Origin: an uncultured Bacteroides sp.
GTDB taxonomy: Bacteria; Bacteroidota; Bacteroidia; Bacteroidales; Bacteroidaceae
Length of the DNA stretch: 64,000 bases
Direction of reading: 5' to 3'
Assembly (NCBI GenBank): GCA_963677945.1
Contig: OY782578.1
Location: 2,011,258 to 2,075,257 of the forward strand
Under the pieces are notes generated by a model. It ran no database searches, was not told where the DNA came from, and worked only from the letters and a program-made list of their open reading frames with translations. Below, in pieces: positions 25,066 through 44,619 of the stretch (within the stretch, counting starts at the first letter, position 1; each line of letters starts with the position of its first letter). The position numbers were made by a program, and so were the translations under genes.

Positions 25066-25082
25066 TTTAATTGTGTTTTCAA

Positions 25083-26519
25083 TTAGTTAATAGGATAAAA
25101 TTTTGCACGCTTCAAATGAGCATCAAACTTAAACATGTAATTACCTGTTGTTTTGATTGTAACGCTTGCATTATCTCCACCTTTCCATACACACTTTTCG
25201 ATATCAGTTTTGCTGTCGAATCTCCAGAAGCAATAATCCCACCAGCCCCAATCGTGTTTGTTGTGGATAATAAATTCCATCTTTGTACCGGCTGTTAAGC
25301 TCATTGTTGTAGAGAACAGATACGGATTATCCTTATCCTGATTTAGAGGAGTAATGTTAGAAGGACTCCATGAATCATTGCCAGGTAAACCTTTACCAAC
25401 CAAACCAATCTGGAATGGAATAATATACTGAGGTTGTGCAGGGTCCAGATAGTAATCAGATCCTATAGCCTGTGGTAATGGATTTGCTGGTACATAAGTT
25501 TTGTAACTATACTCTCCTGTTTTTACATTGAAAGTAATTTCGTAATACTCTTTTCCGGTAGGCAGAACAATCGGTTTAGATACGTCTGGATCATCAGTCA
25601 ACAGATTAGCGTTGTCAGGATCAATACCGAAACAGATAGGAGAGAAGTCTGTCTTTTGAGGAATGAAACGAACTTTACTTCCTGCAGCTTCGGAATAGTA
25701 ACGAGCTGTATAAGTATATGGTCCGGTATGATCAATTAAAACAGGAACACCGAATACATCACTGTTCAGTAAAGCAGCGTCTTCCACATCTGTCAGATAC
25801 ATCTTCTCAAAATCAGGCATTTCGGAAACATTGATAGTACAATTTTGAGTAGTAGTCAAATTGAACTTGTCTACTGCAGAAATTGATAATGCATAAGTTC
25901 CAACTTGCGATGGCATTACTACAACATCACTGTAATTGTAAGTTTTGCCGGTTACAGCTACTGTTTTAGAATAATTCAATGAAGGAATTGAAACACTAAT
26001 GTGATCCAAAGCCTTATCGTCTTGTACGCTGAAACGTAGATTAAGTTTTGTTTGACTCTTAATCAACACTGTAATGTTAGCATCAGGTACTGTAGTAAAT
26101 GTAGGATTTGTAAAATCGCCATCCATTGTAAGCAGGATAGTCTGTTCTGTACTACGACCTCCTAAATCTGTAACAGTAACTCTAATTGCAAAGTTATCCC
26201 CTGTTAAAGTAGAAGGAGTTTTAAATGAATAATCTAAATCATAGGAGGTAAGTGTTTTTTCATAAATATCAGATAAATCAATCGTTTTATCCAAATCTAA
26301 TTCTTCATTCTGTAAGCGAATGCTTTGAATACCATCATTGTCGGTAATCGTACCAGAGATTTTAAATGCTCTGCCTACTTCGCTCTGGATGTGATCAGTT
26401 ACTAATTCAATAGTAGGAGCCTTCCCATCTACATCTTTAAAATCGTCACTACTGCAACCCACCAAGAAGCAGGACAGCAAGAAAGATGACATTAAGCCAG
26501 TTAGCTGTTTTTTGTTCAT
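25083..26519 (-). CDS. Outer-membrane lipoprotein, probable surface glycan-binding protein; first gene of PUL2
   Basis: Lipobox LVGC then acidic SSDD; tandem Ig-like beta-rich domains; directly upstream of susC. Confidence 0.75.
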   Translation of the reverse strand: MNKKQLTGLMSSFLLSCFLVGCSSDDFKDVDGKAPTIELVTDHIQSEVGRAFKISGTITDNDGIQSIRLQNEELDLDKTIDLSDIYEKTLTSYDLDYSFKTPSTLTGDNFAIRVTVTDLGGRSTEQTILLTMDGDFTNPTFTTVPDANITVLIKSQTKLNLRFSVQDDKALDHISVSIPSLNYSKTVAVTGKTYNYSDVVVMPSQVGTYALSISAVDKFNLTTTQNCTINVSEMPDFEKMYLTDVEDAALLNSDVFGVPVLIDHTGPYTYTARYYSEAAGSKVRFIPQKTDFSPICFGIDPDNANLLTDDPDVSKPIVLPTGKEYYEITFNVKTGEYSYKTYVPANPLPQAIGSDYYLDPAQPQYIIPFQIGLVGKGLPGNDSWSPSNITPLNQDKDNPYLFSTTMSLTAGTKMEFIIHNKHDWGWWDYCFWRFDSKTDIEKCVWKGGDNASVTIKTTGNYMFKFDAHLKRAKFYPIN

Positions 26520-26559
26520 AATACATTAATTTAAGATTTAACTCTTAGTTGTTTTGCGG

Positions 26560-26673
26560 CAAATATAGATCAGGCGAATAAATCGATATATAAAAAATCG
26601 TGCATTGATAGATTGTAAATCGTGCAATGCACGATTTATTGTTCTATTTTGATAGATTTTATTGCTATTTTTG
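26560..26673. promoter_or_regulatory. Divergent promoter region with 22-bp-periodic AATC-based repeats
   Basis: Minus-strand -7 TAtaTTTG at 26560-26567; plus-strand -7 TAttTTTG at 26666-26673; aatcgtgca at 26596 and 26618; palindrome taaatcgtgca-a-tgcacgattta 26616-26638; ttgatagatt at 26605 and 26649. Confidence 0.65.
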
Positions 26674-26696
26674 TGAAGTCTAATGATTCGAAATAT

Positions 26697-29600
26697 ATGA
26701 AAAACAGACTGATACAAATTCTATATCTAATATTGGTAAGCTTGCCGACAATTTCTGCCGCTCAACCCTATTCTATTAAACGTTTGGGAGTTGAATTAGG
26801 CTTATCAAACAATAATGTGGTAAGTATTACCCAGGATAAATTAGGTTTTCTTTGGTTTGCCACAGAAGAGGGACTGAACAAGTTTAACGGTTCCCGCTTT
26901 ATTAATTATTATAAATACTCCACACAATCTCCAAGCATCAGTGGCAATGAATTAAATCGTGTTTATGCCGATAAGGTAGATAGCATAATCTGGATTGCAA
27001 CTCAACGCTCTGGTCTGAATGCTTATAATTATAATAATAACACATTTACAGTCTATAAAAAGAATCCGGCAGACAAGAGTAGTCTTATAACAAACGATGT
27101 AACTTCGGTAACCAACGCTGCCGATGGTAATTTATGGATCAGTACTTACTATCGTGGAGTAGATTATTTCGATAAGAAAACCAAAAAGTTTACTCATTAT
27201 AATAAATCCACATTGTCAGGGCTGACAAATGAAAATGTGTGGACCGTTATGGAAGACAATGACCGTAACCTCTTTATAGGTCATGTAAATGAAGGTTTAA
27301 GTATCCTGTCATTAAGAAATAAAAGAGTCCGGAATTTCAAGAATAATCCTCAGGACCCCACAAGTATTCCCGGCAATGAAGTAAGATGCATTTTCAGAGA
27401 TAGTAATAATAATATCTGGGTAGGTACAAATAGCGGATTGGCTTTATTTAATCCGGATAGGAACAATTTTACGGTCTTTAGAAATAACAATTCAGCATTC
27501 TTTGCCCCCAAACTAAGTTCCATCTACTCCATTCAGCAAATAAATAGTAACCAGTTATGGATAGCTACAGAATTTGAAGGCATCTTTATTCTCGATATTC
27601 GCCAACTCTCTATCATGTCGGCAGATAAGGTAAGCTTTAGGCATATATCTTCCGGAGATGATGAATACCAGCTATCCGCTTCAACAGTTCGCAGTATTTT
27701 TCAGGACTCGTTCCATAACATCTGGATTGGTACGTATGGCGGCGGCATTAATTTTATAAGCAATAATCCTCCTTTATTTAATACTTTAAGCTACAATCCT
27801 GTACTAGGTAAAAACAGTAAACTTAGCTATAAGGTAGCCTGGGGAATGTGCACTGATAAACAAGGCAAAACATGGATTGGAACCGATGGCGGAGGTATTA
27901 ATGTTTTTGAGAAAGGGAAACGTATAGCCATTTATAATAAAGAGAGCGGGCAACTGAGTGACAATGCCGTATTATCCATGTTCAATGATTCTCAGAATAA
28001 TATCTGGATTGGAACTTATCTTGGAGGCGTTAACTGCTATAACAACAAGAATAAGCAGTTCAAACAAATTGTTTTGGGAGGAAAAAACAAGCTGGATGTT
28101 CGTTGTTTCTTCGAAGACTTACATCATAATCTCTGGGTTGGAAGCAGTGAGGGGATTTATTGCTTCAATTTGCAAGATCAGCAGAAAATTACTGCTTATA
28201 ATTCGAAGAACAGCGGACTTCAGGGTGATTTGGTAAGAAGCATTTTTCAGGATTCTAAAGGACGGATGTGGATTGGTACGTTTGGAAACGGTCTTGGAAT
28301 TTATTCCCCAAAGATGAAACTTCTGAAGAAGTTCGATGATTATTCCGGTTTCTGCTCAAATACAATCAATTATATATTCAGAGATTCACGAAATAGAATC
28401 TGGGTAGCAACAGGAGATGGCTTGGTTCTGTTTCCGTCTATAAGCAATTATAATTATAGAACATTTAAAAGAAGTGACGGACTTGTCAATAGCCATATCA
28501 GAGCCATTACCGAAGATAATAAAAAGAATATCTGGATTAGTACCAATAAGGGACTCAGTAAATATTCCGAAGCAAAGAATAAATTCGAGAATTACGATAT
28601 TTCAGATGGCATTCCTGCCGGTAATTTCATGAGTGGATCTATTACAAAGGACAAAGACGGATTCATCTATTTTGGTTCTTTGGGTGGAGTCTGTTACTTC
28701 AATCCTGAACAGTTTACCGATAGCAGAGAATATCCTCATCCGGTTATATCCGAGTTGAAAATATACAATAAGCTTTCCACCCTGGAGCATGATGAAAAGG
28801 TAATCCCTTTGGGAGGCAATAAGCATATAGATCTAAACTATAAACAAAACAGTTTCAGCATTGCATTTAATGAACTGGACTATTCACTGAACAATCAGGT
28901 AGAGTACACTTACATACTTAAGGGGTTGAATGATTCATGGTATACCTTAGAGGACGGACACAACAGTGTTACTTTCCTAGATGTGGCTCCCGGAGATTAT
29001 GAATTCCAGATAAAAGCACGCCTTCATAATCAGGATTGGAGTAATGAGGCTATCTCTGTATTTATTCACATAGCACCTCCTTTCTGGCTTACCTGGTGGG
29101 CAAAGTCTCTCTATTTTATACTCTTTATCACATTGGTTTATATTTCCTTATATGCCTATAAAAGAAGAATTAGCTGGAGAAGTTCCTATCAGATGGAGAG
29201 AAAAAAGCATGAGCAAGAACAAGAACTGAATAACGAACGATTGCGTTTTTATACCAATATCACGCATGAATTGCGTACCCCGTTAACCCTTATTTTAGGT
29301 CCGCTTGAAGATCTGATGAAAGAAAAATCTCTTCAAACCAGGCAGCTTCGCAAGATTTCTGTGATACATCAAAGTGCTATTCGTCTGTTGAATCTGATCA
29401 ATCAGATACTAGAGTTCAGAAAGACAGAAACCCAGAACCGCAAACTATGTGTATCCAGAAATAACATAGCAAAACTAATTCAGGAGATTGGACTCAAATA
29501 TAAGGAACTGAATCGTAATCCAGATGTTGAGTTCAATGTCGTTATAGAGAAAGAGGATATGCAGTTGATGTTCGATAGGGAAGTTATTACCATTATCCTC

Positions 29601-30782
29601 GACAACTTTATATCGAATGCCATTAAATATACTGAAAAAGGCTCTATAACCATATCTTTATACTCAACAGTTAAAGATGAAGTGGAATATACCGAAATAA
29701 AGGTCAGCGATACCGGGCATGGAATAGAGGCTGAAGCCTTATCCCGTATTTTCGAAAGTTATTATCAGGTAAATAGTAAGCATCAAGCTTCGGGTACAGG
29801 AATCGGACTAGCTTTAGTGAAGAATCTTGCTACATTGCACCAGGGAGAAATATGGGTAGAAAGTACAGTGGGAAAAGGAAGCGACTTTTTTGTTAGACTC
29901 CAGACTAATAACACATATCCAAATGCCTTGCGTACAGATGAGCCCGAAGAAGTAGAAGAACCGGAAGTTACTGAAGTCGTGGAAGAAGCTGCAGAAGAAG
30001 ACTTTAATACAGAAAAACAAATACTCTTGGTAGTTGAAGATAATCAGGATATCCGTGAATACATAAGTGATACTTTCTCTGAAGATTTTGAAGTAGTAAC
30101 TGCCGAAGACGGAAGAAAAGGTTTGGAAAAAGCCCTTACTATTATTCCGGACCTTGTTATCAGTGATATTATGATGCCGGGAATGGATGGCGTTGAGTTA
30201 TGTAAGAAGCTGAAACAAGATGTGTGTACCAGTCATATCCCCATCATTTTACTTACAGCGAAAGATTCAATGCAGGATAAAGAATATGGTTACACCGTGG
30301 GAGCTGATTCTTATTTAACCAAACCTTTTAGTGCCAGTTTGTTGCGGAGTAGAGTTAATAACCTGTTGGAATCGAGAAAGCAACTGGCTGTGCTGTTTTC
30401 CGGAAATAAAAACATAGTTATAAAGCAAGAACCGGTAAGTAATACATTGAATAAATTAGATAATGAATTCATCAATAAAGTTACTCAATATATCGAGGCA
30501 GATCTTAGTTCCGATAAAATAGATGTAACTTACCTTTCCGATAAAATGTGTATGAGTACTTCTACACTCTATCGTAAAATGAAAGCATTAACTAACATGT
30601 CTACCAATGAATACATTCGCAAAGTGAAGTTGCAGAATGCTGTAAAATTGCTTTTGGAGGGAGAAAGCAAAATCTCCGAAATAGCATATAAAGTAGGATT
30701 CAATAATGTAGTGTACTTCAGACAATGCTTTAAAGATGAATATGGAGTATCTCCGTCAGAATATGTGAAGCGACAAAGGTGA
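26697..30782 (+). CDS. Hybrid two-component system (HTCS), PUL2 regulator
   Basis: Propeller repeats, Y_Y_Y-like region, TM, FYTNITHELRTPL, DTGHGI, GTGIGL, DIMMPGMDG, AraC HTH. ATG 26697 (MKNRLIQ) follows the -7 element; the track start of 26622 is probably too early. Confidence 0.96.
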   Translation: MKNRLIQILYLILVSLPTISAAQPYSIKRLGVELGLSNNNVVSITQDKLGFLWFATEEGLNKFNGSRFINYYKYSTQSPSISGNELNRVYADKVDSIIWIATQRSGLNAYNYNNNTFTVYKKNPADKSSLITNDVTSVTNAADGNLWISTYYRGVDYFDKKTKKFTHYNKSTLSGLTNENVWTVMEDNDRNLFIGHVNEGLSILSLRNKRVRNFKNNPQDPTSIPGNEVRCIFRDSNNNIWVGTNSGLALFNPDRNNFTVFRNNNSAFFAPKLSSIYSIQQINSNQLWIATEFEGIFILDIRQLSIMSADKVSFRHISSGDDEYQLSASTVRSIFQDSFHNIWIGTYGGGINFISNNPPLFNTLSYNPVLGKNSKLSYKVAWGMCTDKQGKTWIGTDGGGINVFEKGKRIAIYNKESGQLSDNAVLSMFNDSQNNIWIGTYLGGVNCYNNKNKQFKQIVLGGKNKLDVRCFFEDLHHNLWVGSSEGIYCFNLQDQQKITAYNSKNSGLQGDLVRSIFQDSKGRMWIGTFGNGLGIYSPKMKLLKKFDDYSGFCSNTINYIFRDSRNRIWVATGDGLVLFPSISNYNYRTFKRSDGLVNSHIRAITEDNKKNIWISTNKGLSKYSEAKNKFENYDISDGIPAGNFMSGSITKDKDGFIYFGSLGGVCYFNPEQFTDSREYPHPVISELKIYNKLSTLEHDEKVIPLGGNKHIDLNYKQNSFSIAFNELDYSLNNQVEYTYILKGLNDSWYTLEDGHNSVTFLDVAPGDYEFQIKARLHNQDWSNEAISVFIHIAPPFWLTWWAKSLYFILFITLVYISLYAYKRRISWRSSYQMERKKHEQEQELNNERLRFYTNITHELRTPLTLILGPLEDLMKEKSLQTRQLRKISVIHQSAIRLLNLINQILEFRKTETQNRKLCVSRNNIAKLIQEIGLKYKELNRNPDVEFNVVIEKEDMQLMFDREVITIILDNFISNAIKYTEKGSITISLYSTVKDEVEYTEIKVSDTGHGIEAEALSRIFESYYQVNSKHQASGTGIGLALVKNLATLHQGEIWVESTVGKGSDFFVRLQTNNTYPNALRTDEPEEVEEPEVTEVVEEAAEEDFNTEKQILLVVEDNQDIREYISDTFSEDFEVVTAEDGRKGLEKALTIIPDLVISDIMMPGMDGVELCKKLKQDVCTSHIPIILLTAKDSMQDKEYGYTVGADSYLTKPFSASLLRSRVNNLLESRKQLAVLFSGNKNIVIKQEPVSNTLNKLDNEFINKVTQYIEADLSSDKIDVTYLSDKMCMSTSTLYRKMKALTNMSTNEYIRKVKLQNAVKLLLEGESKISEIAYKVGFNNVVYFRQCFKDEYGVSPSEYVKRQR

Positions 30783-30899
30783 TGATATTCATCATCTTAT
30801 AAGCAGCGTCTATTGTGTTAAATGTGAAGAATTTTATTGCTTTTTGTATAATTATTCGTTACTTCGTATTTAAACACAATAGAAATAACACGCTGTATT

Positions 30900-32351
30900 A
30901 TGAAAAAGTCTATGAAAAACATATTGTCTAAGTGGCATGAGGCTGTACGCTCTAATCCGGTAGAATTACTTATAGCACTTATCTGCTACGTAATCAATGT
31001 TTTGTTGTTCGAAAAAGTAATAAAGCTGGGAGAATCACTTTATTACTATTTTCCAATGCTGATGATTATAGCGTATACGCTGAATAAATTTGCAGACAAA
31101 AAACAGATACGGTGGATTTATTACGGTTGTTTACTATTAATTGTTCCATTGTTATGGCTCCATAAGCCGGAAAGCGAAGAGTTCTTTTTGTGTGTAACTA
31201 TTGGAGTTCTCACCGGAACCTATCTGGCTTCAGCGTGGCAGAAAGAAAATGCTTCTTTCATGGATAGCGTCTTGCAATTGTTACGCTCTTTGCTTTATGC
31301 ATTTGTATTATCCGGAATAACCTATGCATTGCTTTCGTCTGTCTATTTTTCCATTCAATATATATTTGAAATATGGAAGTCCGGAGATTCCCGATACTTT
31401 CATTATTCGGGGTATTTTGTAAGTATGGTTATCTTTCCATCCTTATTTATCTATTTTCATTACGATAAATCAGATAAGATAATAGCTAACAAGCTTACAG
31501 ATATATTACTCAATTATGTATTATCTCCGGTATTACTAATCTACACAGTCATACTTTATCTCTATTTTATCAAGATAGCATTTGTGTGGTCGCTTCCAAA
31601 GGGAGGTGTTGCCGCCATTGTTCTGGCATTTTCTATCGGGCTGTTTTTCCTGAAAGGATGTGTGTTGCTAGCAAATAAATGTCCCTATAAATGGTTTTAT
31701 AACAAAGCCAGCTTTATTGTGTTTCCTGCATATATCATGTTCTGGATAGCTACCATATACAGAATTAATCAATACGGATTTACTGAAGAACGTGTGTACT
31801 TGCTGATAGCCGGACTAGTGATATCCTTAACTGCAATATTGTTTCTTACAAAACGAACAGGTCGTTATCTGTATGTAATGTTGCTTGCCATTCTGCTGTT
31901 TGGAGTAGTAACTTATATACCTGGCATAAGAGCGTTAGATATAGAGCGGATCTCTCAAAGTAACAGACCTCAGATAGAAGTAGCACCACCTGCTACCTAT
32001 TTGGATGTACAATTATTGGAACCAGTTTCACTGCAAGGATATCGTTCTCTGAATAAAATTTACGACTATAAAACCTCGGACGGTATGTATTTCATTAACG
32101 AAGATAACTCACTAGATTTATATTCAGAAAAAGGCGCTATGCTTTACAGCTTTAATCGGGACTCATTATTAGCTGTACAAATGAAGAAGGCAGGTCTTAC
32201 TCAGTCAGACACTATACCGAAATCCCGTTATTCTGCTTTGCTGAAAATAGAACTCAAATCTGCTTTGCTTATTTTAGGAGAGCTTAGTCTACGTCACGAT
32301 TCAGTTTATAAAGTATCAAATATAACACCAGAGTTCTATCTTAAGAAATAA
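30900..32351 (+). CDS. Polytopic membrane protein, DUF4153-like
   Basis: About 10 hydrophobic helices; motifs YVLSPVLLIYTVILYLYFIKI..WSLPKGG and RINQYGFTEERVY. Confidence 0.7.
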   Translation: MKKSMKNILSKWHEAVRSNPVELLIALICYVINVLLFEKVIKLGESLYYYFPMLMIIAYTLNKFADKKQIRWIYYGCLLLIVPLLWLHKPESEEFFLCVTIGVLTGTYLASAWQKENASFMDSVLQLLRSLLYAFVLSGITYALLSSVYFSIQYIFEIWKSGDSRYFHYSGYFVSMVIFPSLFIYFHYDKSDKIIANKLTDILLNYVLSPVLLIYTVILYLYFIKIAFVWSLPKGGVAAIVLAFSIGLFFLKGCVLLANKCPYKWFYNKASFIVFPAYIMFWIATIYRINQYGFTEERVYLLIAGLVISLTAILFLTKRTGRYLYVMLLAILLFGVVTYIPGIRALDIERISQSNRPQIEVAPPATYLDVQLLEPVSLQGYRSLNKIYDYKTSDGMYFINEDNSLDLYSEKGAMLYSFNRDSLLAVQMKKAGLTQSDTIPKSRYSALLKIELKSALLILGELSLRHDSVYKVSNITPEFYLKK

Positions 32352-32359
32352 GCCTGTTT

Positions 32360-32410
32360 GAAACATATTAGCCCTATATCCGAAACATAATAGCCTTTTT
32401 TATACCTTGC
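32360..32410 (+). promoter_or_regulatory. 14-bp direct repeat at 22-bp period upstream of GH43
   Basis: gaaacatattagcc 32360 and gaaacataatagcc 32382, then a -7-like taccttgc at 32403. Confidence 0.5.
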
Positions 32411-32434
32411 GACCTTTCTTTTTCAGATAAATAA

Positions 32435-34060
<1,626 letters not shown>

Positions 34061-34075
34061 TTTGTTATAGATTTG

Positions 34076-34109
34076 ATGTGTACCCAAAAGTTTGATTTTG
34101 GGTACACAT
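34076..34109 (+). terminator. Terminator hairpin after GH43
   Basis: atgtgtacccaaaa / ttttgggtacacat 14-bp stem. Confidence 0.8.
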
Positions 34110-34194
34110 TTCTTCATTGCTTTTCTTTCTTATTTTGCTTAAAGACACATAAAAAGTCTGTATTTTCTTGTGATTTATGAAAGAATATCAGTCT

Positions 34195-34362
34195 TTATAT
34201 CTTATCTCTTTGAATTAAGAATCTGAAAAATAAAGGTAGTAATACAAATAATATCGCAAATAAGTCATCGTATTTCTTTACGACTCCTATACTGAACATC
34301 ATTTTTATAAAGATGCAGTAAGCAATTACAATACAAATTCTTATAACCGTTTTCTTTTTCAT
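34195..34362 (-). CDS. Small 55-aa two-helix membrane protein (below the ORF-track cutoff)
   Basis: Manual translation MKKKTVIRICIVIAYCIFIKMMFSIGVVKKYDDLFAILFVLLPLFFRFLIQRDKI; MKK start typical of this genome. Confidence 0.5.
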   Translation of the reverse strand: MKKKTVIRICIVIAYCIFIKMMFSIGVVKKYDDLFAILFVLLPLFFRFLIQRDKI

Positions 34363-34940
34363 TTTTTATAAATCTTGTTAAGGCAAAAATATGTAATATT
34401 TTCTAAAGTGTAAAGGATAAATGGTAGATATTCAATCTTTTTATATCTTGATGCAAATATTTATTCTGTTTCGAAAATCCGAAAAAAATAATAAAAAGAT
34501 TTTCATCTTTCACTAGTTATAAATCTTGCTTCATTAATTACTCCCTATAATAATTAGGTTTATAGCTATTTCTTCTTTCAAATATTAGTCGTGGGTAGGA
34601 ATTGAGTCCGTTTTGCTATACAAGTTTGTGTAGTAAAAACGTATATATTGGTATTGCATTGTATATTAAAGGGATACTAGGGCGTTTTTATGTTATTATC
34701 TATGAAATCTTTTTATTGATTGATCTTGAATTAATTAGCATCCTTTATTACGCTGCTCTATTAGTATGATTTTATGTGATTGGATGTAATGTTGAAATTG
34801 TATATAATAAATAAATTATTACCTTGTTGTTTCTTGTTTTTGAAATGAAATAATTACTTTTGTTTAGAAACTAACGAGAAGATTAGAGAAATGATTTTTA
34901 GATGCTGATGATAAATTAATTATTAAATCGAAAAGAAACT

Positions 34941-35192
34941 ATGGAAGATAAAAACTCAAAGAAGGATATTCCAATATGTAAAAAATGCAAAAAGCCAATG
35001 AAATACAATTCTTTATCAGAAGATTTCGAGTGCTCTAACCCAATGTGCGATATAGAAGGTTTATCAATTTCTTCCCTTTCTAATTTGAATCAAGAGGGAG
35101 TTGTTTTTGGTGATTATATTTCTTTAAATAAGATTGATGGAGTCGAAGATATGCTAAATAAAGGATTTAAATTCATAAAAAAAGGTGAGTAA
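34941..35192 (+). CDS. Small Cys4 zinc-ribbon-like hypothetical protein
   Basis: C13-x2-C16-x14-C31-x4-C36; TActTTTG at 34855-34862; 8-bp overlap with the next ORF. Confidence 0.55.
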   Translation: MEDKNSKKDIPICKKCKKPMKYNSLSEDFECSNPMCDIEGLSISSLSNLNQEGVVFGDYISLNKIDGVEDMLNKGFKFIKKGE

Positions 35193-35601
35193 TAAAGATA
35201 TTATTGAAAAACAGTCTGTTGCGTGCTCAAATGTATGCAGACAAATAGTATTTGCTTTAGGTGCTATATCTTGGGGAACTATTTACAGCAGCAAAGACAA
35301 TAAAGCAACTTTTATCATATTGCCTTCTATATCTATGATCTTTATCATTATTTACTTCTGTTTGGATATATCTCAATACTCCTATTCAGCAATAAAGGCT
35401 AGAAAAATTGAAAAAGACTATAGAGTACGTTATAAATACGAGAATGATGGTAATAAATTATGTAAAATTGAACAGAACTATTTTCTTGCTAATGGAAAAG
35501 TAGAGAAAATTGTTTTTAGTTTATTTATAGCTAAAATTGTGATATTGACTATTATTATTATTTCTCTTATAACATATTTTGTTTCTGAAATGAAATTCTA
35601 G
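35185..35601 (+). CDS. Hypothetical 3-TM membrane protein
   Basis: Three hydrophobic segments (RQIVFALGAISW; ATFIILPSISMIFIIIYFCLD; IVFSLFIAKIVILTIIIISLITYFV); GTG start overlaps the upstream stop. Confidence 0.7.
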   Translation: MSNKDIIEKQSVACSNVCRQIVFALGAISWGTIYSSKDNKATFIILPSISMIFIIIYFCLDISQYSYSAIKARKIEKDYRVRYKYENDGNKLCKIEQNYFLANGKVEKIVFSLFIAKIVILTIIIISLITYFVSEMKF

Positions 35602-35738
35602 AGAAGATATTTAGTTCTTATTCAATTACTTGAAAATAAAGAAAATAAAAAAATGAAAGTCAGAAATAAAAAATTAAATTTATTTATGATGAATAGGAAA
35701 AGGATGAAGATGAATTATTTATAGAATCTATAGCTACT

Positions 35739-36086
35739 ATGAAAAAGAAATCTATAATATTTCTAGCCTTCATTCTTACTACTGTAAGCATAATAGCTCA
35801 GACTGTCTATGTAACAAGGACAGGTTCAAAGTACCACTCAGAAGGATGTAGGTATTTAAGCAGAAGCCAGATAGCAATCTCTTTATCTGATGCACTCTCC
35901 CAAGGATATAACGCATGTAGTGTCTGTGATCCTCCTACCTCAGTTGTGAGGAAGCATGCAAAACATCATACTAAACATCATGTATCAAGGAAGAATACTG
36001 TTCAGTGCTCAGCGTTTACCAAGTATGGGAAAAGATGCCGACGCATGACTACAAATGCCAATGGTCGGTGTTGGCAACATCAATAA
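35739..36086 (+). CDS. Exported small protein with two putative Zn-binding modules (Ada-metal-binding-like and DUF5763-like)
   Basis: Signal peptide; TVYVTRTGSKYH..GCRYL...GYNACSVC (H33,C37,C60,C63); QCSAFTKYGKRC...GRCWQH (C90,C100,C111,H114). Confidence 0.75.
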   Translation: MKKKSIIFLAFILTTVSIIAQTVYVTRTGSKYHSEGCRYLSRSQIAISLSDALSQGYNACSVCDPPTSVVRKHAKHHTKHHVSRKNTVQCSAFTKYGKRCRRMTTNANGRCWQHQ

Positions 36087-36120
36087 ATAAATTAATTAAG
36101 CACAAAACACACGTTAAAAT

Positions 36121-39069
36121 ATGGGAGAAGAATTTAAACCTGAGGTAGAAATTGAGAGATTAACAAAATTAATTGAAGAAAAACCTGAAAATGTCGAGGC
36201 ATATAATAGTAGAGGTGATGTTTTTTATACACTAGAAAAATATGATAAAGCAATTCAAGATTATGATAAAGCTATAGAATTAGATGTTAATTGTATTTAT
36301 GCTTATAATAGTAGAGGTAATTCCTTTTATGCACTAGAAGAATATAATAAAGCAATACAAGATTATGATAAAGCTATAGAATTAGATGCAAATTATATTT
36401 ATGCTTATGGTGGCAGAGGTGATGCCTTTTATGCACTAAAAGAATATGATAAAGCAATACAAGCTTATAATAAAGCTATAGAATTAGATGCTAATTATAT
36501 TTATGCTTATAATAGTAGAGGTAATTCCTTTTATGCACAAGAAGAATATAATAAAGCAATACAAGATTATGATAAAGTTATAGAATTAGATGCTAATTAT
36601 ATTTATGCTTATAATAGTAGAGGTAATGCCTTTTATGCACAAAAAGAATATGATAAAGCAATTCAAGATTATGATAAAGCCATTGAGTTAGATGCTAATT
36701 ATATTTTTGCTTATAATAGTAGAGGTAATGCCTTTTATACATTAAAAGAATATGATAAAGCAATTCAAGATTATGATAAAACTATAGAATTAGATCCAAG
36801 TTGGGCTCTAGCTTATGATAGCAGAGGTAATGTCTTTTATGCACAAGAAAAATATGATAAAGCAATTCAAGATTATGATAAAGCAATAGAATTAGATGCT
36901 AATTATATTTATGCTTATAATGCTAGAGGTAATGCCTTTTATGCACAAGAAAAATATGATAAAGCAATTCAAAATTATGGTAAAACTATAGAATTAGATG
37001 CTAATAATATCGATGCTTATATTCTTAGAGGTAATATCTTTTATGCACAAGAAGAATATGATAAAGCAATTCAAGATTATGATAAAGCAATAGAATTAGA
37101 TGCTAATTATATTTTTGCTTATAATAGTAGAGGTAATGCCTTTTATGCACAAAAAGAATATGATAAAGCAATTCAAGATTATGATAAAGCCATTGAGTTA
37201 GATGCTAATTATATTTTTGCTTATAATAGTAGAGGTAATGCCTTTTATACATTAAAAGAATATGATAAAGCAATTCAAGATTATGATAAAACTATTGAAT
37301 TGAATCCTAGTTGGGCTCTAGCTTATGATAGTAGAGGTGGTGTCTTTTATGCATTAAAAAAATATGATAAAGCAATACGAGATTATGATAAAGCCATTGA
37401 ATTAGATGCTAATTATATCTATGCATATAATGCTAGAGGTAATGCTTTCTATGCTCAAGAAGAATATGATAAAGCAATACAAGATTATAATAAAACTATA
37501 GAATTAGATGCTAATTATATTTTTGCTTATAATAACAGAGGTAATGCTTTCTATGCTCAAGAAGAATATAATAAAGCAATACAAGATTATAATAAAACTA
37601 TAGAATTAGATGCTAATTATATTTTTGCTTATAATAATAGAGGTAATGCCTTCTATGCACTAAAAAAATATGATAAAGCAATACAAGATTATAATAAAAC
37701 TATAGAGCTAGATTCTAGTTGGGATCTAGCTTATTATAATAGAGGTAATGTCTTTTATGCACAAGAAGAATATGATAAAGCAATTCAGGATTACAATAAA
37801 GCTATTGAGTTAAATCCTAATTACAAATATGCATATATTAATAAAGGTTATGCATCTTTTAACCTAAAAGATTGGGTAAATGCAGCTCAATCTTTTAATG
37901 CAGCAAAGAGTAGTATACTAGACATTTTGTCATGGTTTGGTGAAAACGAACAAATAGAAGAAGTCATTAGATTCATGATAGAGTATGACGACTTTTTTAA
38001 TAAAACAATTAGCTCTGAGGATATTTCTATAGATCATAAAGAACTATTAAAAAAAATATATATTAACGCGTTGCAAATAATAGCATCGTTACATGTTAAA
38101 AATGAATCTACAGCTGCTCACTATACCAAGAGAGCAACAGCAGCTACGCTGCTATTTTTTGAAGATTCTAAATATAGACTTAATTCTATAATGACAGCTA
38201 ATGATCCACAAGAAGGTGAAACACTTCTTAAATATTTTAAGCTAAAAGAATCAAAAAAAAGTAAAGGCGAAGATTCTAATAATAAAGAGCCAAAACATGA
38301 TTATCAAGCCTTTATTGGTTGTTTTACATTTAATCATGAGAGCTTAAATCAATTCAGACTTTATGGTAAAGCATCAGATAAAGAGGCAACAGGTATTAGT
38401 CTCGTTTTAAATAAAAATTTCTTTAACGAAAAGATGGATATTGGTTTATTGTCAAATTGCTTTTCAAAAGATGACAAAAAAGAATATGCAAACGTTAATA
38501 ATGATTTATCGAAAAAATATGCTTTGTATCGATGTATTTACGTTGATCCAGAAACATACAAAATAATCTCAATAGGGCACAAAGAAGAATATTCATTCTA
38601 TAGAGAATTTAAAGAAAAAAAGAGAATTGATGAAGAAAAAAATAAGGAAGTTATAGACAAATACAATGAGAGTCTTGATGAGATAAAAAATAAAGTGAAT
38701 AAATGTTTTTATAAATTATCCCAATGTATTGAAGATGCTATAAGTAAAGAGCTTGATCAAGATATTATCTGTGAATTGCTCCTTCCATTACGCTATTTAG
38801 TTAAACACGTTGCATTTAAAGAAGAACAAGAATGTAGGATCTTTGATATAAAGGATTTGCAAGAAGATAAACTTAAAGAGAAAGAAAAAAGAGAAATTAA
38901 ATTCACACCTGATTACGCACAAATGTTTATAGAATATCAGCCTATTATGGAATATGTTGAAAAAGTTATTTTTGCGCCAAAAACAGAGGGTGTAGATCTC
39001 TTTAAGAAAGCTGCGGAACAAAAAGGATTAAATGTAAAATGCGACGTTAGTAATCATCCATTTTCTTAG
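36121..39069 (+). CDS. TPR-repeat protein with C-terminal DUF2971-like (ADP-ribosyltransferase-like) domain
   Basis: 16 near-identical 34-aa TPRs plus one degenerate; C-terminal HYT..., NDPQEG, FIGCF, QFRLYG, LVKHVAFKEEQECRI. Confidence 0.85.
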   Translation: MGEEFKPEVEIERLTKLIEEKPENVEAYNSRGDVFYTLEKYDKAIQDYDKAIELDVNCIYAYNSRGNSFYALEEYNKAIQDYDKAIELDANYIYAYGGRGDAFYALKEYDKAIQAYNKAIELDANYIYAYNSRGNSFYAQEEYNKAIQDYDKVIELDANYIYAYNSRGNAFYAQKEYDKAIQDYDKAIELDANYIFAYNSRGNAFYTLKEYDKAIQDYDKTIELDPSWALAYDSRGNVFYAQEKYDKAIQDYDKAIELDANYIYAYNARGNAFYAQEKYDKAIQNYGKTIELDANNIDAYILRGNIFYAQEEYDKAIQDYDKAIELDANYIFAYNSRGNAFYAQKEYDKAIQDYDKAIELDANYIFAYNSRGNAFYTLKEYDKAIQDYDKTIELNPSWALAYDSRGGVFYALKKYDKAIRDYDKAIELDANYIYAYNARGNAFYAQEEYDKAIQDYNKTIELDANYIFAYNNRGNAFYAQEEYNKAIQDYNKTIELDANYIFAYNNRGNAFYALKKYDKAIQDYNKTIELDSSWDLAYYNRGNVFYAQEEYDKAIQDYNKAIELNPNYKYAYINKGYASFNLKDWVNAAQSFNAAKSSILDILSWFGENEQIEEVIRFMIEYDDFFNKTISSEDISIDHKELLKKIYINALQIIASLHVKNESTAAHYTKRATAATLLFFEDSKYRLNSIMTANDPQEGETLLKYFKLKESKKSKGEDSNNKEPKHDYQAFIGCFTFNHESLNQFRLYGKASDKEATGISLVLNKNFFNEKMDIGLLSNCFSKDDKKEYANVNNDLSKKYALYRCIYVDPETYKIISIGHKEEYSFYREFKEKKRIDEEKNKEVIDKYNESLDEIKNKVNKCFYKLSQCIEDAISKELDQDIICELLLPLRYLVKHVAFKEEQECRIFDIKDLQEDKLKEKEKREIKFTPDYAQMFIEYQPIMEYVEKVIFAPKTEGVDLFKKAAEQKGLNVKCDVSNHPFS
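36193..37824 (+). repeat. 16 x 102-bp in-frame tandem repeat (TPR coding)
   Basis: Consensus IYAYNSRGNAFYAQEEYDKAIQDYDKAIELDANY; exact 180-bp duplication 36606-36785 = 37116-37295. Confidence 0.97.
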
Positions 39070-39690: not shown

Positions 39691-40086
39691 TCACCTCTCA
39701 CTCTTCTCAAACCCAGCAGCACTAATCCGCTTCTTCATCTTGGAAGAAGCCCGGAAATTAACACTCTTCACCTCAATACTCTCGGCGCGATGAGTTTTTT
39801 CGGGATTAAAGTCTTCACGGAATTGTGCAGAGAGTTGGAAAGCACCATAGTCATTTAAGGCAACTGTGTAACCGTTTTTTAAAGCTTTCTCTATTGCACT
39901 AAATGTTTTTGTTATTGCTAGCTCCATTTCTGTACGTAGTAATGGGTCGTTTCCTGCAATGTATTCGGCTAATGCTTTTGTGTTTAGCTTTTCTCTGCTT
40001 TTTATTATTGGGTGAACACCGCCTTTTTTCTTTGTGTCTTTACTTAAATTATCGTTTATCTCTTTGAATTTATATGGTATGCCCAT
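39691..40086 (-). CDS. Bacteroidetes HU-like (HU-HIG type) DNA-binding protein
   Basis: KLNTKALAEYIA, KALKNGYTVALNDYGAFQLS, VKSVNFRASSKMK match the extended HU/IHF-like family common in Bacteroides. Confidence 0.8.
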   Translation of the reverse strand: MGIPYKFKEINDNLSKDTKKKGGVHPIIKSREKLNTKALAEYIAGNDPLLRTEMELAITKTFSAIEKALKNGYTVALNDYGAFQLSAQFREDFNPEKTHRAESIEVKSVNFRASSKMKKRISAAGFEKSER

Positions 40087-40120
40087 GGTAATTAATGTTT
40101 TATTGGTTTATGGTTTCTAC

Positions 40121-40183
40121 AAACATGTACAAGATTGAATTCGAACATGTACATGTTCGAATGTCGATCGTGTACATGATCGA
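40121..40183. repeat. Array of TGTACA-centred palindromes upstream of the HU-like gene
   Basis: Perfect 24-bp palindrome attcgaacatgtacatgttcgaat 40139-40162; near-perfect tcgatcgtgtacatgatcga 40164-40183; tgtac cores at 40126, 40148, 40171. Confidence 0.85.
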
Positions 40184-40283
40184 TATGATGTCTCGTTTTG
40201 TTTTTGCTAATTCGTTTAGTCATATTTGCTAATATGCCTATATGTTTGAATTATAGTATATTAGCTAATATGAATATATCTCT

Positions 40284-40422
40284 GGGTGTCAGAGGTGTCA
40301 GAGAAAAAGTCCTTTTTCTCTTTCTGAAAATAAAATTTTGAAAATTCCGCAATTTGCAGATTTTTCGTTTTTTTATTTTTGAAACGCTGAAAAACCTTTT
40401 TTTACTGACACCTCTGACACCC
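40284..40422. repeat. 139-bp fold-back element with perfect 18-bp terminal inverted repeats, each holding 2 x GGTGTCAG
   Basis: gggtgtcagaggtgtcag 40284-40301 and ctgacacctctgacaccc 40405-40422; AT-rich interior with degenerate symmetry; ends 4 bp from the VirE stop codon. Confidence 0.92.
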
Positions 40423-40426
40423 CTTG

Positions 40427-42508
40427 CTAATCTAACTCCTTGATAACTACGTTATAGACTGTTTTTCCTTTTACTCTTTTCCACTGATAATTAAGTGATT
40501 TCAAGTTCCTTCCCAGCTTAACGATCATCTTCTTACTAATAGCAATCCCCGTTTTACTTTTAATATATTCCGCTAGTTTTGCTGCAGAAAGGAAAATACC
40601 TTCCTCTTCACCTTCCGGTTTACGGTAATATTCATAGAAAAGTTCCATATCTGCATCAGTTTCCATGTAGTGTTGGTTGTGCTGCTCTACAATGCTATTT
40701 TCTTCTGAATTGAAGTAGTAACGGAATCCATTGAGAATCATGTTCCATGCCTGGGCATAGAGTTGCTTGTAATCTATGGTGAAATCGAAATTTATAGGAC
40801 CTGTTACTTCGTGGCATAGGTTACGACGGCTACCGGTGTAATCTCTCAGAATATCCATGTGATTGGTTGTTCCGAAGAAGGAAGCATGGCGCGTGAAATT
40901 TCGTGGGGGACGGTCCGGCGAGATGCGTATATTTATGTTGAACGTGGTGAACAACTCTTTTACCGTTTCCTGATCGTATCGCTGAATGGTATCCAGCTCG
41001 TCGATATTCAGGATGGCACTGGTGCTTAGCTTCATGCGGGTTGCATTGGCATTATTGGAAAATACGTTGGCATCGAAATGACTTTTGCGCCACTCGGGAG
41101 GTAACAGACGTTCCGGCCAGGTGGATTTTCCCATACCGTGTTTACCGCCAATCAATACCAGAATCTGATGATTAATTACTCGGTCGTTTATCAATGAAGC
41201 AACCAATGCCACGAACCATTTACGGAAGCACCATTCAAAATATTCGGGATCTTTGGTGGGTACGGTGGCTGCCACATCGGCAATATAGTCGTGCCCATCC
41301 CATTCGGTGAAGGGGACAAAGATAAAATCCTTGAAAGGGTGGTAGGAGGGGGTAAACTCGGAATCTACCATTGCCTTTACATCATTCAGGGTGCAGTTTA
41401 TTCCTTCTTTGTGTGCCCGGATATAAATGGTGTTGAGGTGATGATCGCGAAGCTCGGTCCACTCATGATTGGTATGATCGGCATAACGGAATTCAATGCC
41501 TTGTAGTATTACATTGCGGCGCAACATGAAGTTGCGTTTGATAAACTCTTCGAGCTGGTGTGTCTCTTTCTCCACTTTTGTCAGTCCGCTGTCAGTACCA
41601 AACGCATTTTCGTACTCTTTATATTTAATTCGGATGGTGCGGCGGAGGTCGTCGGCTGTAAAATTGTTTGTAATACAGCGTGGAAGTGCCAGTTTGGCTG
41701 TTTCGGCTTCAGGAAGTCCTGCCAGACAGCAAAAGTATGCCAAACCGTACACAAATTGTGACCGGTTTTCTTCCAGGAAAGATTCCTTGTTGAGTGTGTT
41801 AGAGTAAGCGCGGTCGAATGCTCTTTTTATTTCAAGATCCCGTGCTTCGCCAATTGGCAGATGTGCAAATGAAATGGGGTCTCCCTCCATGTTTCGGAGT
41901 AACTTTTCCGGTTTTTTCTCGTAATCCTTTTTGGTGGCTACCAGGAACACTTCTGCTTCAGAATTAAAGAATAATTGCGGATCGTAGGTGGCGGTGGTTA
42001 GTTGTGCCAGTGAGTGCGTACTTTTCTTAAAATCAGCGTATAAGCATGATTCGTAATAGATGCTGACAGTTGCAAATGCCTGCTCGTGAAACTGTGCAAT
42101 CTCTTCATTTGTCTGCGGTTGTGAATTATCCGGACGAGATACAGGAACAAGGATGATAATTTCTGTTCCGTCTGTATTTATGAAAGAGGCGAGGGTGTTG
42201 GGTTCTTTGGCTGCATTATCCCGAAGGGCTTCGGCTTGTTTCGGTTCCAGTTTTGTGCTGCAAAGCTGAACAATTCCGTTGTACTGCTCCATATTGGTTT
42301 TGGTACGTCCGCCATTGAAAGTGGCGCCAAATGTGAAAGAGGGGAGTTGCTCCCATGCTTTGGCTGTGTCTGTGCTGTTGTTTCGGATATCGTCAACGAG
42401 GCTTGCGTATTTTAAACTGCTGAAAGAGTTGATTACTTCTGTTATCGGACTGTTTTCAAGAAATGTAGGGCGGCCTTTATTTCCACCTTTGTAGTGTGAT
42501 ACATTCAT
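40427..42508 (-). CDS. BT4734-like N-terminal / VirE (VapE) P-loop ATPase / DUF3874-like protein (primase-helicase architecture)
   Basis: LPSFTFGATFNGGR...YNGIVQL (VirE_N), NRSQFVYGLA (PriCT-like), Walker A GKHGMGKST, Walker B ILNIDE, ASFFGTTN, TGSRR. Confidence 0.85.
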   Translation of the reverse strand: MNVSHYKGGNKGRPTFLENSPITEVINSFSSLKYASLVDDIRNNSTDTAKAWEQLPSFTFGATFNGGRTKTNMEQYNGIVQLCSTKLEPKQAEALRDNAAKEPNTLASFINTDGTEIIILVPVSRPDNSQPQTNEEIAQFHEQAFATVSIYYESCLYADFKKSTHSLAQLTTATYDPQLFFNSEAEVFLVATKKDYEKKPEKLLRNMEGDPISFAHLPIGEARDLEIKRAFDRAYSNTLNKESFLEENRSQFVYGLAYFCCLAGLPEAETAKLALPRCITNNFTADDLRRTIRIKYKEYENAFGTDSGLTKVEKETHQLEEFIKRNFMLRRNVILQGIEFRYADHTNHEWTELRDHHLNTIYIRAHKEGINCTLNDVKAMVDSEFTPSYHPFKDFIFVPFTEWDGHDYIADVAATVPTKDPEYFEWCFRKWFVALVASLINDRVINHQILVLIGGKHGMGKSTWPERLLPPEWRKSHFDANVFSNNANATRMKLSTSAILNIDELDTIQRYDQETVKELFTTFNINIRISPDRPPRNFTRHASFFGTTNHMDILRDYTGSRRNLCHEVTGPINFDFTIDYKQLYAQAWNMILNGFRYYFNSEENSIVEQHNQHYMETDADMELFYEYYRKPEGEEEGIFLSAAKLAEYIKSKTGIAISKKMIVKLGRNLKSLNYQWKRVKGKTVYNVVIKELD

Positions 42509-43530: not shown

Positions 43531-43899
43531 TTATTTTTTCAATTTATTCTTTCCGTTACCCTCTTTATTTAAAATTATAGTGGTATTTTCGGTTGTGATC
43601 AGGCAGCCAGTGGGCAGGTAATCAAACCAGGGAAGTATTTTTTCGATAAAAGCATCAATCTTTTGAGATTCATCTATAATTTCCACTACAACAGGTAGTT
43701 TCTCTGTGATCTCCCAGAATTTAACCGAACGGATAATACTGCTTGATCCGTATCCCATAACTCCCTTTGTAACTGTTGCTCCGGCAAGTCCGTATCGTTT
43801 TGCTGCGAAAACAATTGTTTCGTAAAGAAGTGAATGCTTAAATTTATCTGTGTTGCTGGTAAATATCCGCAATAGCTTTGCTTCCCCTTTTATTTCCAT
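43531..43899 (-). CDS. DUF190 (PII-like) protein
   Basis: KLLRIF, LYETIV..A...GLAGATVTKGVMGYG, LPVVVEIID; directly downstream of crcB. Confidence 0.88.
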   Translation of the reverse strand: MEIKGEAKLLRIFTSNTDKFKHSLLYETIVFAAKRYGLAGATVTKGVMGYGSSSIIRSVKFWEITEKLPVVVEIIDESQKIDAFIEKILPWFDYLPTGCLITTENTTIILNKEGNGKNKLKK

Positions 43900-43901
43900 A
43901 T

Positions 43902-44279
43902 TCAAAATATTTTAGTGATTAGATTACCTAAATAGGTGGCTATTAATCCAAGGAAAATGCTGAGACTCGTGTAAAGTGCAAAATAGAAAAAGTTGCCATC
44001 TCTCAAAAGAGACATGTTTTCGCTGGCAAATGTTGAAAAGGTTGTAAACCCACCACAAAATCCGATAGTGAGAAATATCCGCAGTTCGTTATTTACCAGA
44101 TTGCCCCGTTCAAAAAGTCCATAAAACAGGCCAATAAGGAAACATCCTAATATATTCACAATAAATGTTCCGAATGGAAAGGATGAGAAGATGTTGTTTT
44201 GCATAGCTCTTGACAGGAGATAGCGTAATATTCCACCGATAAAACTTCCGGAACCAATGATGAATAATATTCTTATCAT
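43902..44279 (-). CDS. crcB: Fluoride efflux channel CrcB/FluC
   Basis: [35 protein letters not shown]. Confidence 0.96.
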
Positions 44280-44405: not shown

Positions 44406-44406
44406 G

Positions 44407-44480
44407 AGCCTCTTGTCGGATTCGAACCAACGACCCCGAGATTACAAATCACGTGCTCTGGCCAACTGAGCTAAAGAGGC
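44407..44480 (-). tRNA. tRNA-Thr(UGU), copy 1
   Basis: GCCTCTT acceptor stem, D arm, loop TTTGTAA, GTTCGAATC; CCA not encoded. Confidence 0.96.
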
Positions 44481-44545
44481 GAAGATATATTTTTTTTTAT
44501 TTTTCATTTTTTAGGCACCTCAATAATGAAGTGCCTAATTTTTTG

Positions 44546-44619
44546 AGCCTCTTGTCGGATTCGAACCAACGACCCCGAGATTACAAATCACGTGCTCTGG
44601 CCAACTGAGCTAAAGAGGC
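44546..44619 (-). tRNA. tRNA-Thr(UGU), copy 2 (identical)
   Basis: Identical 74-nt sequence 139 bp away. Confidence 0.96.

Follow-up and report, generated by a model that had tools for sequence, protein, structure and literature searches.

A tetratricopeptide-repeat protein with a C-terminal DUF2971-type module from an uncultured Bacteroides as a candidate single-chain sensor-effector conflict protein

The gene and its repeat array

The window analysed here is a stretch of 64,000 nucleotides from an uncultured Bacteroides sp. (assembly GCA_963677945.1, contig OY782578.1, positions 2,011,258 to 2,075,257 of the forward strand), and the element under study is a single gene within it that encodes a long array of tetratricopeptide repeats (TPRs) followed by a conserved C-terminal module of the DUF2971 type. 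An original prediction, made from the sequence alone, had described the product as a TPR sensor fused to an effector resembling an ADP-ribosyltransferase (ART), and had proposed it as a single-gene defence or conflict system. The open reading frame (ORF) and its repeats are as follows (positions in the window):

36121..39069, plus strand: complete ORF, TPR array and conserved C-terminal DUF2971-type module (ORF call, domains, homologues)
36190..37821, plus strand: 16 regular, near-identical 34-residue consensus-type TPRs, amino acids (aa) 24-567 (Pfam, Tandem Repeats Finder, in-register cutting by hand)
37822..37923, plus strand: degenerate 17th (capping) TPR, aa 568-601, continuous with the helical start of the module (hand cutting, AlphaFold model)

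The ORF begins with ATG and encodes 982 aa, and the hydropathy profile agrees with the prediction of a protein that has neither a signal peptide nor a transmembrane segment: the maximum Kyte-Doolittle 19-residue mean is 1.16, and the N-terminus is hydrophilic, which implies that no signal peptide is present. In the repeat array, Pfam TPR_1 matches the protein at E=6.6e-148 in 16 separate stretches and Tandem Repeats Finder reports a 102-bp unit in 16.2 copies at 36202-37853 (85% matches, score 2206). When the protein is cut in register, the 16 regular repeats have the consensus YIYAYNSRGNAFYAQEEYDKAIQDYDKAIELDAN, and together with the degenerate capping repeat they give the 17 TPRs originally counted. 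Repeats 5 and 10 are 99% identical in nucleotides, 6 and 11 are 96% identical and 7 and 12 are 90% identical, which indicates a recent duplication of a repeat block; repeats 2 and 4 are likewise 96% identical. Isolates of two coded organisms contain the locus, and the C-terminal half of the gene is identical across four of their sequencing runs, whose k-mer contigs fragment within the repeat array.

Anatomy and conserved residues of the C-terminal module

A BLAST comparison with 120 homologues shows that the conserved stretch extends from approximately aa 580 to the end of the protein at 35-45% identity, and is thus wider than the 340-aa domain initially outlined. The AlphaFold2 model of aa 580-982, for which 121 sequences were used, is confident, with a mean predicted local distance difference test (pLDDT) score of 89.7 and a predicted template-modelling score of 0.90, and its sole disordered part is aa 780-796. 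The module can be divided as follows:

37873..38088, plus strand: N-terminal helical bundle of the module, five helices, aa 585-656 (AlphaFold model, homologue conservation)
38098..38865, plus strand: DUF2971 / ART-like core, aa 660-915 (Pfam, model, Foldseek, PMC12522546)
38119..38127, plus strand: motif I, H667-Y668-T669, closing the first core beta-strand (alignment, AlphaFold model)
38200..38217, plus strand: N694-D695-P-x-E698-G699 loop (alignment)
38311..38370, plus strand: motif II region, aa 731-750, an F-I-G-[C/S]734-F735-T-F strand followed by an N-Q-F-R746-L-Y748-G-K750 helix (alignment, model)
38587..38793, plus strand: large helical insert between core strands, aa 823-891 (AlphaFold model; PMC12522546)
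38821..38838, plus strand: motif III, E901-E902-Q903-E904-C905-R906 (alignment, model)
38866..39066, plus strand: C-terminal alpha/beta subdomain, aa 916-982 (alignment, AlphaFold model)

The segment between the repeats and the core had been described as a helical linker. It is helical, comprising five helices modelled at a pLDDT of about 90, but it is not a loose linker; it belongs to the conserved globular module, and F626, L657 and E662 in and beside it are conserved across the family.

Residue conservation within the module was counted in an alignment of 121 sequences. In motif I, which closes the strand formed by residues 664-669 in the model, H667 is present in 101 of the 121, Y668 in 120 and T669 in 92, and the remaining 20 have Y, T or S in place of H667. 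On a short strand after motif I lies R686 (114 of 121), and the loop that follows contains the invariant residues N694, D695, E698 and G699. In the motif II region, F735, R746, L747, Y748, G749 and K750 are all invariant, and position 734 is cysteine in 95 sequences and serine in 26. The proposal that this strand carries an S-x-S-like motif is not confirmed, T736 being variable (T in 78, I in 34). Two further invariant residues, C805 and Y807, sit on strands after the motif II helix, and the K895-H896 pair, of which K895 is invariant, comes after the helical insert. Motif III is invariant from E902 to R906, and E904 is the first residue of the strand formed by residues 904-912 of the model. 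The three motifs lie where they were first placed (HYT at 667, FIGCFT at 731 with C734, and EQECR at 902), and their conservation is far from chance.

The extreme C-terminal tail of the family is also conserved, with the pattern [S/C]-x-[H/N]-P-[F/L]-x (aa 977-982, 39049-39066 in the window). Because TPR domains often bind C-terminal peptides, one can imagine this tail docking in the groove of its own TPR array as an autoinhibitory latch, although this is pure speculation.

The module as a divergent member of the DUF2971 family

When the window protein is compared with the Pfam DUF2971 model (PF11185), it scores 17.7 bits over its full length and 19.6-19.7 bits for the domain only (E=0.002-0.009), below the curated gathering score of 22 bits. 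Among 26 diverse relatives, however, 25 match PF11185 at E≤0.01 (best E=4.4e-6), and we therefore consider the module a divergent DUF2971 subfamily. Of the 120 homologues listed, at least 14 already carry precomputed PF11185 matches, and two have the NCBI name 'DUF2971 domain-containing protein'. A 2025 survey assigns DUF2971 to the ART superfamily, in the H-Y-E clade near DarT, AbiGi and Tox-ART-HYD1 (PMC12522546), which bears out the statement in the original prediction that the family belongs to the ART-like clan. The same survey notes that the motif-I histidine of DUF2971 is poorly conserved, that its tyrosine is conserved, that it has an ExE motif and that its helical inserts are unusually large (PMC12522546), and all four of these traits match the module seen here. 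In DarT, H13-x-T15 on strand 1 is followed by R51, Y71 and E160 (PMC9967889); in the window protein the order H667-x-T669, R686, F735/Y748, E904 and the placement of these residues on the secondary structure of the model agree with that pattern, which makes R686 a candidate equivalent of R51 in DarT. The invariant F735 and Y748 are a better fit to an H-Y-E type site than to an S-x-S site.

Structural searches give a less clear-cut picture. The original prediction had suggested comparing a model of the domain with known ART structures, and when the module model was compared with 350,542 PDB chains using Foldseek, no significant ART match was obtained and nothing was found at E≤0.001 (best E=1.3, TM score ≤0.38), although the list is dominated by ARTs, which account for 22 of the 32 matches listed and 19 of the top 20. 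These weak ART matches comprise seven proteins, namely Tpt1 (yeast and P. horikoshii), T. kodakarensis KptA, DarT (Thermus and M. tuberculosis), CteC and C3larvin, with the Tpt1/KptA enzymes at the top of the list. ARTs make up about 1% of PDB chains (an order-of-magnitude estimate), and as the ART hypothesis was set before the search, the E-value restricted to this class would be roughly 0.01. It is probable that the long inserts break the Foldseek alignment. Other searches also argue against an ART fold: Foldseek against BFVD gave nothing significant, a trimmed domain-only hidden Markov model (HMM) found no ART and nothing significant among PDB sequences, and hhalign of the domain profile against a single E. 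coli KptA sequence returned a probability of 0.05%.

An alternative is that the likeness to ARTs is too faint to be genuine, that the module is not an NAD+-dependent transferase, and that its invariant C805, C905, K895, N694-D695 and R746, together with H896, serve another chemistry (a hydrolase, for example) or non-enzymatic binding. The lack of any significant fold or sequence match to solved ARTs, the score below the DUF2971 cut-off, the substitution of H667 in 20 of 121 sequences and the two invariant cysteines, which are unusual for ARTs, all favour it. On the other hand, the weak Foldseek matches are overwhelmingly ARTs from seven unrelated entries rather than a random mixture, the H-x-T, aromatic/Tyr and E-x-E elements follow the ART pattern in order and placement, and an independent survey puts DUF2971 in the H-Y-E clade with the same weak histidine and the same inserts (PMC12522546). 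We regard a module that is not an NAD+-dependent transferase as improbable and the ART-like assignment, which draws on the literature and on the weak evidence above, as likely.

A family with exchangeable N-termini and no conserved partner

The module belongs to a large family, although exact-match look-ups found no record of the window protein itself. A word index returned 1,175 matches, and HMMER, run exhaustively with the domain profile, found, after clustering at 50% identity, 2,231 clusters at E≤1e-3, 1,140 at E≤1e-10 and 496 at E≤1e-30. The module is C-terminal without exception, both in the 80 genomic loci and in the 236 proteins, and the N-terminal region in front of it measures 0 to 1,119 aa. 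This region usually consists of TPRs, ranging (by Pfam counts) from two to approximately thirty, the latter in the relative at L002 (1,453 aa), and some family members match the TPR-S 'sensor' model. Other members carry different N-termini: an LRR (leucine-rich repeat) array of about 900 aa (L063:3220-6990), LRRs with TPRs (P0194), a TIR domain with TPRs (P0133, 986 aa; TIR_2 E=8.9e-23), a McrB-type AAA_5 ATPase (L053:116-2557), or regions of about 500 aa that have no Pfam match (P0215, P0223, P0232 and P0236). Fusions to TIR, LRR and McrB-type AAA_5 domains typify conflict systems. Database annotations already show the TPR-DUF2971 fusion, which is not described in the literature on DUF2971 that we searched, nor are TPRs mentioned in the ART survey (PMC12522546).

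The distribution of the family is patchy over phyla, with 211 stretches that match it among the 185,579 species genomes of one collection. Its hosts are Bacteroidota, Fibrobacterota, Spirochaetota (many of them termite-gut metagenome-assembled genomes, MAGs) and Pseudomonadota of the Moraxellaceae, Neisseriaceae and Pasteurellaceae.

No neighbour is conserved across the 80 loci, the largest cluster of neighbouring genes being found in 5 of the 80, which implies that there is no DarG-like antitoxin; the top-ranking families in a set of 136 flanking proteins include no macrodomain. With the same module behind swapped N-termini and no conserved partner, the predicted layout of sensor and effector in a single gene is strengthened. 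Around one-sixth of the 136 immediately flanking genes match PADLOC models, a raw fraction without a control set, and these include DUF3990 (=PDC-M13/M10/M42), MADS mad2, AbiEii, AbiU and type I, II and IV restriction-modification genes. In L002, an uncultured Bacteroides that is the closest Bacteroides relative (60% identical), an HNH gene lies directly downstream (L002:7227-8330), and its product fits the type IV methyl-directed restriction model of PADLOC (E=1.2e-9). The presence of defence-type genes beside family members is suggestive of a conflict role. As a separate observation, DUF3990 proteins (PADLOC candidates PDC-M13A/B, M10A and M42A) adjoin the family gene in 4 of approximately 40 loci, including L011:7143-7760.

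About 18% of DUF2971 proteins at large are predicted effectors, including L. pneumophila lpg1268 (PMC12522546), and the window protein might by analogy be a secreted toxin or host-directed effector delivered to other cells, as predicted for some Legionella DUF2971 proteins. We consider this very improbable, given that the protein has no signal peptide or transmembrane segment, that Pfam shows only TPR-type families and the sub-threshold DUF2971 match with nothing secretion-like, that no adjacent immunity gene is conserved across the 80 loci, and that the source resembles environmental polysaccharide-degrading Bacteroidota.

Comparison with known systems

The effector of the window protein is most like those of Aristaios and DarT. 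Aristaios is a stand-alone DUF2971 protein of 316 aa from a lactococcal plasmid that has been validated as a single-gene system resembling abortive infection (Abi) and that blocks phage transcription (PMC11381338, PMC13064643). Compared by description, the two share the DUF2971 effector family, a single gene without a partner (here on genomic evidence), a predicted ART-like fold and a cytoplasmic location. They differ in that Aristaios is a lone domain on Firmicutes plasmids, whereas the window gene is chromosomal in Bacteroidota, and its product adds a 600-aa TPR array, the N-terminal helical bundle and the C-terminal subdomain.

DarT is among the best (albeit weak) structural matches and is the enzyme beside which DUF2971 has been placed (PMC12522546), and the two proteins share the same order of strand-1 H-x-T, arginine (R686), aromatic/Tyr and strand-start glutamate. 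The window protein differs in having E-x-E rather than a single glutamate, a helical insert of around 100 aa and fused TPRs. At E≤0.1 neither Pfam nor PADLOC gives it a DarT match, and no DarG macrodomain or NADAR antitoxin is found among its neighbours in the window (Pfam). As it has no DarT HMM match and no antitoxin, it is not a member of the DarTG systems, and with no antitoxin or conserved neighbour, control of the enzyme would have to lie within the chain.

Tpt1/KptA is an NAD+-dependent RNA 2'-phosphotransferase of the H-H-h clade of the ART superfamily and acts on nucleic-acid ends. The module showed no sequence or profile similarity to it when aligned with E. coli KptA by hhalign, and the E-x-E that is invariant in the window family is absent from Tpt1.

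With regard to domain organization, Avs/STAND proteins join a TPR-like sensor to a toxic effector within a single chain. The window protein likewise unites a repeat-type sensor with an effector, and some of its relatives match TPR-S or carry TIR. It has, however, no P-loop NTPase by Pfam and no Walker B motif, and its sole Walker-A-like string (aa 282) falls inside a TPR; the effector is C-terminal rather than N-terminal, and the repeats are regular canonical TPRs. Having no NTPase, it is not an Avs/STAND protein. DSR2 reportedly joins a SIR2 NADase to a helical-repeat sensor for a phage tail tube protein, and on that description it would be the closest mechanistic analogue: one protein, without an NTPase switch, in which a helical-repeat sensor is coupled to an NAD+-using effector. 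It is said to differ in fold (SIR2 versus ART-like), in domain order, which is opposite, and in its repeats, which are HEAT-like instead of TPRs.

A proposed sensor-effector mechanism

We tentatively propose that the window gene encodes a cytoplasmic single-chain sensor-effector conflict protein, most likely one acting in anti-phage Abi, a reading to which we assign a little less than an even chance. The proposal builds on the observed architecture, family membership, modularity and absence of a partner, and on the fast evolution of the window lineage; the trigger, autoinhibition, substrate and phenotype are what we infer beyond these. It is strengthened by the occurrence of the same module behind arrays of 2 to more than 30 TPRs, LRR arrays, TIR with TPRs and AAA_5.

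In the resting state, the enzyme would be kept inactive within its own chain. A trigger, for example a phage protein or peptide, would bind the TPR superhelix and release it. Judging by published analyses of DUF2971 and the weak structural evidence above, H667-x-T669 may bind NAD+ while Y748 and F735 stack on the nicotinamide, and E902-x-E904 would be the catalytic motif. NAD+ would then be spent to ADP-ribosylate either a nucleic acid (as with DarT and Tpt1/KptA) or a protein of transcription or replication, and this modification would halt phage growth at a cost to the cell. Duplication of TPR units could allow the sensor to change quickly.

A more far-reaching version, which we think rather doubtful, would make this protein the first known member of a widespread class of bacterial pattern-recognition proteins that work without an NTPase (>2,000 clusters), in which a plug-in TPR, LRR or TIR+TPR sensor directly gates an antitoxin-free, DarT-like nucleic-acid ADP-ribosyltransferase, the sensor is rapidly re-tuned by unequal recombination among near-identical repeats, and the highly conserved ligA-linked form found in Psychrobacter has been domesticated for DNA metabolism.

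If the proposed mechanism were true, it would describe an ART toxin that is kept safe by a fused repeat sensor without an antitoxin. It would also extend Aristaios, the sole validated DUF2971 defence, to a far larger multi-phylum family with visible swapping of sensors, and would provide a tractable system for identifying the trigger and target of DUF2971 enzymes. If the mechanism fails, the gene is an ordinary uncharacterised TPR protein.

Evolution of the gene in three lineages and the case for a housekeeping role

The window is syntenic with L001, a soil Bacteroidetes MAG, in which the neighbouring GH43 protein is 93% identical and the product of the downstream lipoprotein ORF 89% identical in aa. 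The TPR-DUF2971 gene itself is only approximately 75% identical in aa and 77% in nucleotides to its L001 orthologue, against 91% nucleotide identity for the flank, and the orthologue encodes 708 aa rather than 982. Sequence divergence in the window gene thus runs ahead of that in its syntenic flanks, and the number of repeats varies as well.

In Acinetobacter, rpoC is closely followed by the homologue (L060:5035-7041, L061:4513-6516, L068:5617-7140 and L079:5116-7011). No other gene in that neighbourhood is so poorly conserved (46-47% aa identity), and in the MAG L079 the homologue is split into three ORFs and is therefore probably a pseudogene.

Several observations weigh against a defence role, the most serious of which come from Psychrobacter. 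The homologues there are found at these positions:

L064:5548-6981
L077:5548-6981
L080:5548-6978
L073:5092-6954

In these four genomes the gene order is smc-zipA-ligA-[gene], with the homologue beginning 4 bp after ligA, the gene for the NAD+-dependent DNA ligase. It is also the most conserved gene of the neighbourhood, at 92-93% aa identity from species to species compared with 82-86% for LigA. This pattern suggests a domesticated or housekeeping nucleic-acid enzyme tied to DNA metabolism; such conservation is unlike that of a fast-turnover immune gene, and is the main counter-evidence to a uniform defence role. The gene occupies the same chromosomal site in the window and in L001, and no recognised defence gene flanks it in the window according to Pfam and PADLOC, so the original description of an AT-rich accessory island is only half right: the AT-richness is real, whereas the site is shared with a related genome and no defence gene adjoins it. 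PADLOC has no model that matches the window protein or its small neighbours, tblastn of the module against plasmids and phages found no copies, and among the sequencing runs that match the locus no RNA runs were identified. Furthermore, the near-identical consensus TPRs look more like a scaffold than a tuned receptor.

An alternative that accommodates these points is a housekeeping or stress enzyme that uses NAD+ on the ends or bases of DNA or RNA (Tpt1/KptA-like end modification, or repair signalling), with the TPRs as a recruiting scaffold, to which uniform consensus repeats would be suited. The placement after ligA with the top conservation of the neighbourhood in Psychrobacter, the placement after rpoC in Acinetobacter, the fixed site without defence neighbours in the window and its relative, and the fact that the best weak structural matches are ARTs acting on nucleic acids all speak for it. 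Against it, the gene is missing from most genomes and scattered over phyla, the Acinetobacter homologue is the least conserved locally and broken in one MAG, the window gene outpaces its flanks with a varying repeat number, the module is fused to TIR, LRR and McrB-type AAA_5 domains, and the only DUF2971 protein to have been tested, Aristaios, is an Abi-like defence. We judge a housekeeping enzyme to be unlikely as an account of the window gene. The contrast between the fast-evolving copies (window and Acinetobacter) and the conserved ligA-linked Psychrobacter copy offers a natural test of immune gene versus domesticated enzyme.

Surroundings of the gene in the window

The gene lies at the end of an AT-rich tract, and the other features of its surroundings are as follows:

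34061..39069, no strand assigned: AT-rich tract (GC 0.26-0.29) that contains the gene and, upstream of it, three small ORFs on the same strand (GC, ORFs, synteny)
34941-35192, plus strand: small upstream ORF, 83 aa, CxxC...C zinc-ribbon-like
35185-35601, plus strand: small upstream ORF, 138-aa membrane protein, overlapping the 83-aa ORF by 8 bp
35739-36086, plus strand: small upstream ORF, 115-aa signal-peptide protein, Cys- and His-rich
39691-40086, minus strand: HU-HIG DNA-binding protein
40427-42508, minus strand: BT4734-N/VapE/DUF3874 primase-like protein
43531-44279: crcB/DUF190 fluoride-resistance genes
44406-44480 and 44545-44619, minus strand: tandem tRNA-Thr (TGT) genes

The GC content is 0.26-0.29 for the gene and 0.28 for the upstream tract (34061-36120), compared with 0.37-0.44 for neighbouring genes. 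A perfect 14/15-bp stem-loop with the appearance of a terminator follows the GH43 stop codon (34075-34110) and marks the boundary between the GC-normal genes of a polysaccharide-utilisation locus (PUL) and the AT-rich tract. Within 200 bp upstream of the TPR gene or the small ORFs, the Bacteroidota-type TAnnTTTG promoter motif occurs only at 34855, and the small ORFs and the TPR gene may consequently be co-transcribed. Scans of the locus for sigma-70 promoters and terminators gave results at chance level, and an invertible promoter was considered and rejected, as the inverted repeats are only imperfect and AT-rich.

The three small upstream ORFs were also considered as partners of the TPR gene and were rejected, because they are not conserved in the two closest relatives (L001 and L002, from which they are absent); we regard them as context only. 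L001 and L002 have unrelated small secreted proteins in their place, which by eye are SH3b/DUF3761-like. The 83-aa ORF has a weak, sub-threshold match (E=0.014) to CTD5 of the ABC-3C conflict systems, and in sequencing runs X4 and X5 the depth is zero over 35146-35336. In NCBIfam, the window protein and its small neighbours have no matches beyond TPR families.

Downstream, the order is a small lipoprotein ORF, HU-HIG, the BT4734-N/VapE/DUF3874 primase-like gene, CrcB/DUF190 and the two tRNA-Thr genes. The pairing of HU-HIG with BT4734-N/VapE/DUF3874 is typical of Bacteroidota mobile elements; there is no integrase adjacent to the window gene, and with none nearby the pair at 39691-42508 may be the remnant of an integrated element. 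Upstream, the neighbourhood at 22048-34060 is devoted to polysaccharide utilisation, with a SusC-like TonB receptor, a 1,386-aa hybrid two-component regulator, DUF4153 and a GH43 beta-xylosidase-like protein. This PUL neighbourhood fits an environmental, plant-biomass-degrading member of the Bacteroidota, and k-mer matches to the locus are found in rhizosphere, retting, sludge and bioreactor metagenomes.

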